IMG/VR virus record: IMGVR_UViG_637000263_000002 | DNA: 57,257 nucleotides | Source of the DNA: a virus | Lineage: Duplodnaviria; Heunggongvirae; Uroviricota; Caudoviricetes | Direction: 5' to 3' (one strand) | Shown: positions 19,982-22,900 of the stretch, piece by piece | Position numbering within the stretch: the first letter of the stretch is position 1 | Layout: each line of letters opens with the position of its first letter | Program-made: the position numbers

Positions 19982-22900
19982 GCGAGATTTGAGACGAAGG
20001 TTGTTATTTGCACTGACACAATATTGTGTGGGAATGTCTGACTCCTTACCATCTCCTGTTCTGTGATGTTGTTTTGTTGCAGTTCCAGTGCTCTTTTTTC
20101 AGCACCAGAATGGTGCATTGTCGGTCAGGTTACGTAGTGAACCTCTGGCAGGGGACTGATAATGCATCATTCTGGTGTTGTAAATATCTCTTCGGACAAC
20201 TTACAAAATATTCTAAGCAAACCCCGGGAACACACTCTTAACTGCCTTGGTTGGCGGTTTTTTGTACAGTGCTCGGTATGTGTGAGCTGGAAATCAGATT
20301 TTGCATGGACTGGAATCATGCTGTTATTTAGGGGCGAAGAACTGGCTTTTTCTTCCGCCTTCTCACCAGTAACGATTAGAAAAATAATGAAATGCCCCTC
20401 CGGGGAGGAGGACCGTAGAAAAAAGGACCCGCCAGCAAAAACATTGGGGATGAACAGCTTTCGCTACTCAGATTGCTGGCGGGTAAAGTTCCTCATGAAT
20501 TAAGAATGCTACGCGATCTTTTTTAATGGAAATGAAAATTATTGTCAATTAGTCGTGCGTGTTTTTTCATACAATATTGGTAAAGGTGATTCAGGCCATC
20601 AGAGTTTTGCTGATGGCCTTTTTTCTTTCCGATAGCACAGGTCTGTCGGGGGGGCGGGATATGTATCAGATGGAAAAAATATCAACAGGCATTGCCTACG
20701 GCACCTCCGCCGGCAGTGCCGGCTACTGGTTTTTGCAGTGGTTGGATCAGTGAGGTGTACTGGCAATAGCGGACACTACCATTTGTTCTTTTTTTAAGCA
20801 GCCATCTGATGATATTTTTCCCTGAAGGCTGCCGGGGAGATATTCCCCAGACGAGAGTGACGACGCTGACGATTGTAGAAAATCTCAATGTATTCCCGTA
20901 TTACTGAGATGGCTTCATCCCGGTTATTAAAACGATAGTGGCTCAGGCTCTCATTTTTCAGCGTTCCCCAGAAGCTTTCCATCGGAGCGTTGTCGTAACA
21001 GTTACCTTTACGCGACATTGATGTTTTCAGACCAGACTGCTCCTGTATGACCCGGTAATCGTATGCGCAGTACTGTGAACCTCGATCAGAGTGGTGGATT
21101 AGCCCGGCAGGTGGGCGCTGGCTCCTGAGCGCCATAAACAGGGCTTTACCTGTCAGCTCTTTTGTCATGCGCTCTCCCATGGCGTAGCCGACAATTTCGC
21201 ACGTATAAACATCTTTGATGCCAGCAACATACGTCAGGTCCGCCACCCAGACCTGATTTGGTGCTGTAGGAGCGAACGTCTGGTTCAGCAGATTTGGCGC
21301 AACTGGCAGATTGTGGTTCGGGTTCGTAGTCGCTCTGAACTTGCGTTTCTGCTTACAGCGTAGCCTCAGCTCCTTACGAAGACGTGCCAGTCGGTCACGA
21401 CCAACGATGATGCCATTCTCTGCCAGCTCCGTCTGGAGCCGCCGGGTTCCATATGTTTCGCGAGTGCGGATATGTGCCACCTTAATCTCCAGTTTTAGCC
21501 GCTCATCACTTTGTTTTCTGTCTGAGGGTTCATGCTGTACCCAGTTGTAATAACCGCTCCTGGATACACCAAATACCTGACACATCGCTTCAATGGGAAA
21601 TTGTTGTCGCCATTGTTCGATTAACGCGTATTTTTCAGCGACTCCTGTGCAAAATACGCTGTTGCTTTTTTTAATATATCGCGCTCAAGGCGAGCTTCAT
21701 TTAACGCCTTACGCAGTTGCAGAATTTCAGATTCCAGTTCAGCCACCGTGCGGGAACCAGGAGTACCGAGCCCTTTTCTGGCGGCGGTAACCCATTGTCC
21801 TAAAGTGCCTTCAGGAAGGGATAATCGGGAAGCGCCTTCACTGATCGAAAGTTGATTTTCAAGAACCGTTCTGACAGCTTCGGCTTTGAACTCTTTAGAG
21901 TAACGTTGGGTTTTTCTGCTCATTATTAGCTCCTTCTGATGCCATTCTATTTCAGGAAGGAGTGTCCGTTAAACTCAGGCTACCTCAGTCAGCGCTGGAA
22001 CGACGAGAAGCCAGAAACCATTCAACCACAATCCAGACCATCATCCGCAATCACCGTATCGAAAACTGGCTATGTGTTTTTCGACAGGTGAACCATGAAA
22101 TCAAAAATCAAATCGCTACTGGTCGCTGGTTATAACCACGGCTGGTTAAGTATTTCGTTTGTCGATTTCTGGTTTAAAAATCTCAATCTGAGGGAATCAT
22201 GAGGCCAAGTGAACTTAGCGACCTGCTTTGGGCGCAGGTTGACAGGGTGGCTCCGCACCTGTTGCCAAACGGCAAGATAGAGGGGCATGAGTGGGTTGCC
22301 GGTAACGTCAACGGTGACAAGGGAAACAGCCTTAAGGTCAACCTTATCGGCAAGAAAAAATGGGCTGATTTCGCTGAGGGAGACGGCGGTGACATGCTTG
22401 ATTTGTGGATGGCATGTCGTGGAATTAACCTGCATCAGGCTATGCAGGAAGCGAAAGCATTTCTCGGTATCAAGGATGACGATCACCATTTCGATGCCAG
22501 ACGTGAGAAGAAATTCTCCAGACCTGATCGTAAGAAAATCGCCCGCTACGTTACCAGAACAGAATCCCATCTTGAGTACCTGCAATCGCGTGGCATATCG
22601 CCAGAAGTCGTAAAGCGCTACGAGGTTGTCAGCGGCAAGGTGTGGAATGGAGAACGAGAACTGGATGCTCTGGTGCTTCCGTACAAACGCGATGGTGAGT
22701 TGTTGCAGGTCAAGCGAATCAGCACTGAGCGCCCGGACGGGAAGAAAGTCATTATGGCAGAAGGTGATTGCGAACCTTGCCTGTTCGGATGGCAGGCTCT
22801 GGACGCTGGCGTGAGGGTGGTTGTGCTTTGCGAAGGCGAAATTGATTGTATGAGCTATGCGCAATACGGCATCTCGGCGTTATCCGTGCCGTTTGGTGGC

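Follow-up and report, generated by a model that had tools for sequence, protein, structure and literature searches.

A predicted antisense small-RNA gene between a tRNA-operon trailer and a pre-holin terminator in a lambdoid late region

The viral sequence IMGVR_UViG_637000263_000002 (57,257 nt, Caudoviricetes; the whole stretch is called here the window) contains two lambdoid late regions, copies A and B. In copy A the end of the last tRNA gene (tRNA-Gly) and the start of the holin gene are 675 bp apart, and the question raised by this locus is what such a long spacer holds in the slot between the Q and S genes. The original prediction described the spacer as free of any convincing coding frame, noted in it a 12-bp perfect inverted repeat and a terminator just ahead of the holin, and suggested a small RNA (sRNA) or the remnant of a moron. 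The spacer is non-coding and mosaic, and comprises three RNA-level modules. The best overall explanation, in which we have a fair degree of confidence, is that these modules are the trailer of the tRNA operon, an antisense sRNA gene, and a plus-strand terminator that insulates the holin from transcription not modified by Q. The architecture of the modules, their conservation and the relatedness of the second one to mapped sRNA genes were observed directly.

The sRNA-gene unit (20413-20550) is located on the minus strand, opposite to the late operon, 114 nt upstream of the holin ATG. The inverted repeat on which it is built is perfect over 12 bp as originally described (ACCCGCCAGCAA / TTGCTGGCGGGT); its arms, separated by 34 nt, occupy 20427-20438 and 20473-20484, 4-8 nt away from the coordinates first assigned to them (20419-20480). 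No perfect inverted repeat of at least 12 bp with a loop of up to 60 nt was obtained in 300 dinucleotide shuffles of 19986-20660. Read along the minus strand, the order is ACCCGCCAGCAA, 34 nt, TTGCTGGCGGGT, CC and UUUUUU (20424-20419), that is, a GC-rich stem followed by a U-tract, as in an intrinsic terminator. On the plus strand the repeat is followed by AAAGTTCC, which contains no U-tract. Ahead of the hairpin, on the same strand, lies a promoter-like box (20520..20548) consisting of TTGACA (20548-20543), a 17-nt spacer and TAAAAA (20525-20520), from which a start near 20513 was predicted. Box and terminator together probably constitute a regulatory sRNA gene; its predicted product is an antisense sRNA of ~95 nt (20419..20513), EcOnc32/PasA-like, with a calculated fold of -34.2 kcal/mol (z = -3.6) and a conserved hairpin loop, UCAUCCCCAAU. 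Both promoter hexamers are invariant in seven variants of the window type; within this family the hairpin is also almost unchanged, whereas the 15-20 nt next to the predicted start are variable. A small RNA in the Q-to-S moron slot was, then, the right kind of answer, while a protein moron of the stx type, or its remnant, found no support. The assumption that both structures face rightward was not supported for the inverted repeat, whose U-tract and TTGACA are on the minus strand.

The original prediction had proposed a covariance-model scan and an alignment to the Q-to-S regions of Stx phages, and had named, as what would speak against it, the lack of a transcript ending at the terminator and of conservation of the inverted repeats in related prophages. 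Both structures proved to be conserved. A common order of parts, namely an A-run, a hairpin with a GCCAGC stem, ~60-70 nt, TTGTCAA, the plus-strand terminator and the holin, was found in the window, in extraintestinal pathogenic Escherichia coli (ExPEC), in prophages PP2, PP4 and PP5 of the enteropathogenic E.coli (EPEC) strain E2348/69, and in prophages Sp3 and Sp5 of the enterohaemorrhagic E.coli (EHEC) O157 strain Sakai. RNAs have been mapped at loci of this kind. PasA (743499-743415) and PasC (1290909-1290832) of E2348/69 are both antisense to holin (Table S6; Pearl Mizrahi et al. 2021, PMC8550237), and in both the RNA-seq 5' end is found exactly 30 nt beyond the last base of the equivalent TTGACA. 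The same geometry, applied to the TTGACA of the window, would give the predicted start and a length of ~95 nt. For EcOnc32, cross-linking and analysis of cDNA (CRAC) with Hfq was reported to give a minus-strand peak at 901574-901662; its terminator is Rho-independent, and a band of ~112 nt was seen on Northern blots (Tree et al. 2014, PMC4104026). The unit of the Sp3/PP4 locus is EcOnc32, and the published probe matches there; the Sakai Sp3 unit is identical to the unnamed unit in PP4.

A covariance model (CM) built from the seven window-type variants detected the Sp5 unit with 26.4 bits (E = 0.008), the EcOnc32 unit with 19.8 bits (E = 0.03-0.2) and a second unit in PP2 with ~19.7 bits, all three over the full length and in the syntenic place. 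Pairwise z-scores were 6.1 for window-Sp5, 4.8 for window-EcOnc32, 8.8 for Sp5-EcOnc32, 6.1 for Sp5-PasC and 20 for PasA-PasC; these values are inflated, because the units had been picked for a shared TTGACA, GCCAGC stem and U-tail. A 29-nt promoter box, TTGACAATRA-N6-TTTYCATTAAAAA, is common to the window-type and Sp5-type units, and these were the only two unit types returned when IMG/VR was scanned for it. No known family was found: with Rfam, at gathering thresholds and at E <= 10, the segment 19400-20800 gave only chance miRNA-like matches besides the tRNAs, and RF02703, RF02702 and RF02076 gave no match there at E <= 10. The same search recovered its controls (AsxR with 88.1 bits in Sp5; STnc100 with 207.7 bits in Sp5 and 114.5 bits in an ExPEC locus). 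Megablast of phage GenBank records returned nothing, and distant blastn returned the tRNA trailer and the holin leader only.

The complete spacer was present at >=99% identity in only nine complete E.coli genomes, of the enteroinvasive (EIEC) type, but its right half (20281-20654) was found at 85-88% identity, unannotated, in ~1,430-1,450 of 5,426 complete E.coli genomes (~27%). About 640 of the places were on plasmids, and 558 PLSDB plasmids carried it. Alignment of six contexts delimited a discrete module (~20275-20625) with unrelated DNA on its left. Its left part (20275..20412, 85-88% identity), common to ExPEC prophages and ColV plasmids, contains no conserved open reading frame (ORF) and has no Rfam match. 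In ExPEC the module sits between the STnc100 gene and the holin of a prophage carrying iss; in one such locus (L002, 3698-3886) the STnc100 gene (114.5 bits) directly adjoins it on the left. On ColV plasmids the module adjoins iss and ends at IS200. In one ColV locus (L009, 4348-4469) this insertion sequence (IS), detected by its STnc490 match, is ~380 bp from iss; the right edge on ColV plasmids was rejected as a natural boundary of the module, being the site of the IS200 insertion.

The pre-holin terminator (20593..20626, plus strand) ends 36 nt upstream of the holin start codon. The stem, originally given as 9 bp, has 10 bp (20593-20602 / 20610-20619), with a 7-nt loop and the tail TTTTTTCTTTC (T6). 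This GC-rich stem and T-run have the features of an intrinsic terminator, and the fold has a calculated energy of -23 kcal/mol (z = -4.9). Altogether seven terminator-like sites were counted in 19400-20800, compared with 1.2 +/- 1.2 in shuffled sequences. A homologous hairpin, GGCC(A/G)TCAG...CTG(A/G)(T/C)GGC(C), followed by a T-run, is located just ahead of the holin ribosome-binding site (RBS) in Sp3, Sp5, PP2, PP4 and PP5. Among these hairpins an A-U to G-C compensatory change was observed, together with U.G wobbles that pair only on the plus strand. RNA-seq data of E2348/69 gave a baseMean of 102 for the gene upstream of the equivalent spacer and of 3.5 for the holin. It is established for lambdoid phages that Q-modified polymerase reads through terminators. 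The pre-holin terminator probably ends, or insulates against, rightward transcription by polymerase lacking the Q modification.

The left 280 nt, originally passed over as mere spacer, include a conserved tRNA-operon trailer and an inverted repeat with 31-nt arms. The segment 19982..20265 (plus strand) begins where tRNA-Gly ends and closes with an intrinsic terminator, AACTGCC-TTGGTT-GGCGGTT followed by TTTTGT (20240..20265); its most plausible identity is that of a structured 3' trailer (external transcribed spacer, ETS) belonging to the phage tRNA operon. The DNA downstream of tRNA-Gly in phages SerU-LTIIb and vB_EcoS-683R6 shows 71-74% similarity to it (distant blastn). The inverted repeat (20096-20126 / 20154-20184, 84% complementarity) forms a conserved, long, imperfect hairpin of ~30 bp and ~90 nt (20096..20184); since many of its pairs are G.U, the folded strand is that of the plus-strand RNA. 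In IMG/VR contigs, which were fetched through the 3' arm of the hairpin, the distance from tRNA-Gly(TCC) to the hairpin was 175-192 nt in ~79 of 91 loci, and a strong terminator A(C/T)CGCC...GGCGG-T(6-9), represented in the window by 20240-20265, followed 56-58 or 140-152 nt past the hairpin in 87 of 89 testable loci. Such a position, after the last tRNA and before the operon terminator and kept across loci, is that of a trailer RNA. Pairing was kept in 96.9% of the cells of a 21-variant alignment, and seven pairs had changed on both sides, a number reached by none of 500 shuffles and compared with 2-3 in slid controls, in a test limited by the fixed 3' arm of the search pattern. The hairpin gave only chance miRNA-like matches in Rfam (gathering thresholds and E <= 10), and was unannotated in 296 complete E.coli genomes.

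Several observations weigh against the minus-strand unit being an expressed relative of the Pas and EcOnc genes. Blastn of the window against the Pas loci of E2348/69 matched the holin gene only, and the CM with filters off gave just 7.2 bits for PasA and 9.8 bits for PasC, a weak similarity, while scoring a non-syntenic site with 19.1 bits, equal to the EcOnc32-type matches. The ~112-nt Northern band of EcOnc32 exceeds the 92-98 nt predicted by promoter geometry, and the Sp5 unit is absent from the published Hfq peaks. The consensus promoter scan missed the minus-strand box, because its -10 hexamer (TAAAAA) lacks the conserved final T, and no covariation (0 of 26 pairs) was seen inside the close window-type family, which is too uniform to reveal it. 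The stem change common on ColV plasmids makes a G.U pair on the plus strand and an A.C mismatch on the minus strand; one rarer variant has the opposite change, favouring the minus strand, so that each strand receives one vote. The ColV variant, which retains its pairing on the plus strand only, is one of two points for an alternative in which both structures work in the late transcript, the 12-bp hairpin serving as a processing, stability or attenuation element of the lysis leader, with no antisense gene; the other is that the plus strand also folds well (-33.1 kcal/mol, z = -2.9). We consider this improbable: the U-tract is missing after the hairpin on that strand, the RNAs detected at homologous loci (PasA, PasC, EcOnc32) are of the minus strand, and the invariant TTGACA-N17-TAAAAA, which lies on the other strand at the mapped start distance of PasA and PasC, would be left without an explanation. 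The unit might also be the inert remnant of an sRNA gene in a dead prophage, conserved only through recent acquisition. This would agree with the divergence of variants by only 0-15% without covariation, with the disruption of both flanking genes, Q and holin, by IS elements, and with the ColV copy being a fragment that ends at IS200. It seems unlikely nevertheless, as substitutions spare the promoter hexamers and the hairpin though the neighbouring 15-20 nt vary, the unit persists in four flanking contexts and in about a quarter of complete E.coli genomes, and an sRNA gene works independently of the phage late operon.

Two further alternatives concern the plus strand and the coding capacity of the spacer. 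The pre-holin terminator could be the 3' end of a rightward sRNA of its own, ~45-50 nt long, whose promoter would diverge from the antisense one. TACAAT is present at 20570-20575, good -10 sequences (TATTAT, TATAAC) follow TTGTCA in PP4/Sp3 and in PP2, and prophage sRNAs as short as 51-60 nt are known. Against this, no convincing plus-strand promoter was revealed by the consensus scan or by the variant alignment: a usable -35 is missing (TTGTCA is separated from the -10 by 22 nt in the window and by 15 nt in both PP2 and PP4), and other variants read TACATG in place of TACAAT. Moreover, the EHEC Hfq peak lists contain no plus-strand peak at this place, and a plus-strand fragment detected in E2348/69 by RNA interaction by ligation and sequencing (RIL-seq) maps upstream of the putative promoter. 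We give this possibility little credence. As to coding, the original statement was borne out, as no ORF was kept across the spacer variants and the spacer ORFs had no Pfam or PHROG matches. The longest, of 113 codons (20162-20503), is frame-shifted in a 99%-identical EIEC copy; it was rejected together with ORFs of 71 and 63 codons and a 17-codon mini-ORF, which likewise were not conserved and matched no family. A coding role, either for a small protein or for a type I toxin whose antitoxin would be the antisense RNA, is hardly believable. An ORF of 12-17 codons (MNSFRYSDCWRV...) does begin within the hairpin loop in all variants, and the 63-codon ORF was annotated by the Prokaryotic Genome Annotation Pipeline (PGAP) in some ExPEC genomes, but the latter passes through the terminator hairpin and is broken by indels in other variants, while in the mini-ORF every change is non-synonymous, the stop position shifts and the peptide is non-hydrophobic; protein-family matches were nil.

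With the antisense sRNA gene as the preferred reading of the minus-strand unit, the following scheme can be drawn, in which transcription, Hfq binding, targets and the insulating role are those that we infer. In a lysogen, sigma-70 RNA polymerase would initiate at TTGACA-N17-TAAAAA, with the start near 20513, and run leftward, opposing the late operon, until it reached the GC-rich 12-bp hairpin and U6; the RNA released there would have ~95 nt. On the model of PasA/PasC and EcOnc32, it would bind Hfq via its terminator and U-tail and would base-pair with mRNAs in trans. The plus-strand terminator would stop non-Q transcription, such as read-through from the tRNA operon or from moron promoters, ahead of the holin RBS, and Q-modified polymerase coming from pR' would pass it. 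Excision of the tRNAs would leave a structured 3' fragment of ~280 nt. A bolder proposal is rather doubtful: that the trailer, with its long G.U-rich hairpin and terminator, belongs to an undescribed class of phage RNA, freed by processing and acting in the lysogen as a sponge or an RNase III-dependent regulator; that together with the antisense sRNA and the pre-holin terminator it forms an RNA-only 'moron' that reprograms the host and silences the lysis genes; and that, beside iss on ColV plasmids, this sRNA acts as a virulence-linked riboregulator.

The modules are flanked in copy A by a Q-related DUF1133 protein gene (19060-19482), N-terminally truncated by an IS, a tRNA island Met/Ile(CAT)-Arg-Thr-Gly (19672-19981) with a promoter-like site just ahead of it at 19633-19662 (consensus scan), and, on the right, the 5' leader and RBS of the holin with a fragment of this gene (20627..20750, plus strand; P21-type, i.e. 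class II, P21 S type; ATG at 20662, second start at 20671). The holin is interrupted by an IS after 20750, and the exact holin::IS junction is also present in S. flexneri SFBU1023. IS3-family elements (17830-19031, 20751-21923 and elsewhere) disrupt the Q-like gene of copy A as well as its holin, for which reason this late operon is dead; the tRNAs and the RNA modules between the two elements remain intact. Copy B consists of Q (28102-28479), tRNAs (28682-28992) and an intact holin (29285-29500). Identity between the two copies extends as far as the final base of tRNA-Gly, beyond which they are unrelated; an exception is tRNA-Thr(TGT) of copy A (19829-19902), which lacks 1 nt in its 3' acceptor region relative to copy B (28839-28914; GTC-GCACCA vs GTCGGCACCA) and scores 55.9 bits in Rfam vs 69.8 bits; it may be impaired. 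The copy B spacer (28993-29285) contains different perfect inverted repeats (14 bp at 29052/29111, 11 bp at 28999/29034 and 9 bp at 29123/29169), and no EcOnc32-like unit or Rfam match was found in it. Behind each Q gene a short region (19483-19590 and 28483-28598) is closed by a hairpin and T-run (agagcccgctttatgcggtttttttt; aaacccgcctccgggcgggtttttt); judged from the sequence, these regions are expected to correspond to the short pR'-tR' transcript, the place of StxS in Stx phages. Farther to the right, a Toprim-type primase ORF (22199-24058), its end truncated by an IS, shows weak Hint (24.5 bits, below the cut-off) and LAGLIDADG (24.1 bits) matches after a GHGKA|C motif, and possibly holds an intein.

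In EHEC and EPEC, Q-to-S prophage sRNAs (AsxR, AgvB, PasA-D, StxS) are known to remodel the regulatory circuits of the host. The present unit, unnamed and unannotated, is a predicted further one of this kind in prophage remnants of Shigella, EIEC and ExPEC, and it adjoins iss on hundreds of ColV-type virulence plasmids. Such lineages escape BLAST surveys starting from EPEC sequences, and the published word-28 BLAST survey of Pas sRNAs would miss the window variant. A simple rule would allow recognition of the units: TTGACA, ~95-100 nt, then a GCCAGC-stem hairpin and a U-tract, on the strand opposite the holin. The conserved, covarying hairpin of phage tRNA trailers is described in no database.

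The comparison with known systems places the unit as follows. As with PasA and PasC (Pearl Mizrahi et al. 2021; Zhu, Shabalina and Storz 2026 preprint), the order is a moron, the (here predicted) sRNA gene on the opposite strand, then holin and lysozyme; the predicted start fits their promoter geometry, and the terminator stem contains GCCAGC(A) and carries a large loop; the sizes are 79-85 nt for the Pas RNAs vs ~95 nt for the window. The GCCAGCA core, which forms the PasA seed, is present in the window unit, but this stem core is the only common element, and no significant sequence similarity to PasA/PasC was found. The 3' ends differ, and for this reason the unit is not a PasA-2 variant. 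In PP2 itself (L004, 5259-5369, minus strand) the second TTGACA...GCCAGCG-hairpin-U unit adjoins the esterase stop codon, and the 'minor' 236-nt PasA isoform ends (743264) at the terminator of this unit; PP2 may carry two tandem antisense sRNA genes.

EcOnc32 resembles the window unit in being a minus-strand gene directly before a P21-type holin, in its promoter box TTGACAATAAT, in the GCCAGC-stem hairpin with large loop and U-tract, and in the plus-strand terminator GGCCATCAG before the holin. It differs in that its transcribed 5' part and loop are unrelated in sequence (no blastn match), in having a convergent plus-strand partner, EcOnc13/PasD, which the window is without, and in that expression and Hfq binding are demonstrated for EcOnc32 only. 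The best relative found was the unnamed unit of the Stx2 phage Sp5/933W type (Sakai, L076, 7579-7704, minus strand). The TTGACA-N17-TAAAAA layout and the promoter box are identical in the two, the stem of the Sp5 unit is CCGCCAGC and its tail U7, and its holin is preceded by the same plus-strand terminator. Its loop is 11 nt, unlike the 34 nt of the window, two small ORFs lie between unit and terminator, and it follows a sialate esterase gene, whereas the window unit follows the tRNA trailer. AsxR/AgvB (RF02703, RF02702) and STnc100/PasD (RF02076) are prophage sRNAs of the same Q-to-S slot, and AsxR/AgvB are likewise antisense to the late operon, but they are shorter (51-60 nt) and have other terminators. 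On these sequence features the window unit was filed as a putative distant, unnamed member of the EcOnc32/PasA kind, and not as PasA/PasC proper, AsxR/AgvB or STnc100/PasD.

Regulatory RNAs derived from tRNA-operon trailers are known as 3'ETS-leuZ-type sRNAs. The segment 19982-20265 resembles them in position, after the last tRNA and ahead of the operon terminator, and in its strong structure and conservation; unlike them, it has no sequence relation, is much longer (~280 nt) and is dominated by the 30-bp hairpin. Lambdoid morons are self-contained promoter/terminator units inserted downstream of pR'. The spacer shares the organisation into promoter/terminator units, but its cargo, unlike that of a typical moron, is RNA only. 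All three kinds of module, trailer, antisense sRNA and terminator, are already described in Shiga-toxin and EPEC prophages; new with respect to these is a widely distributed predicted sRNA gene, flanked by conserved tRNA-trailer RNA and a pre-holin terminator.

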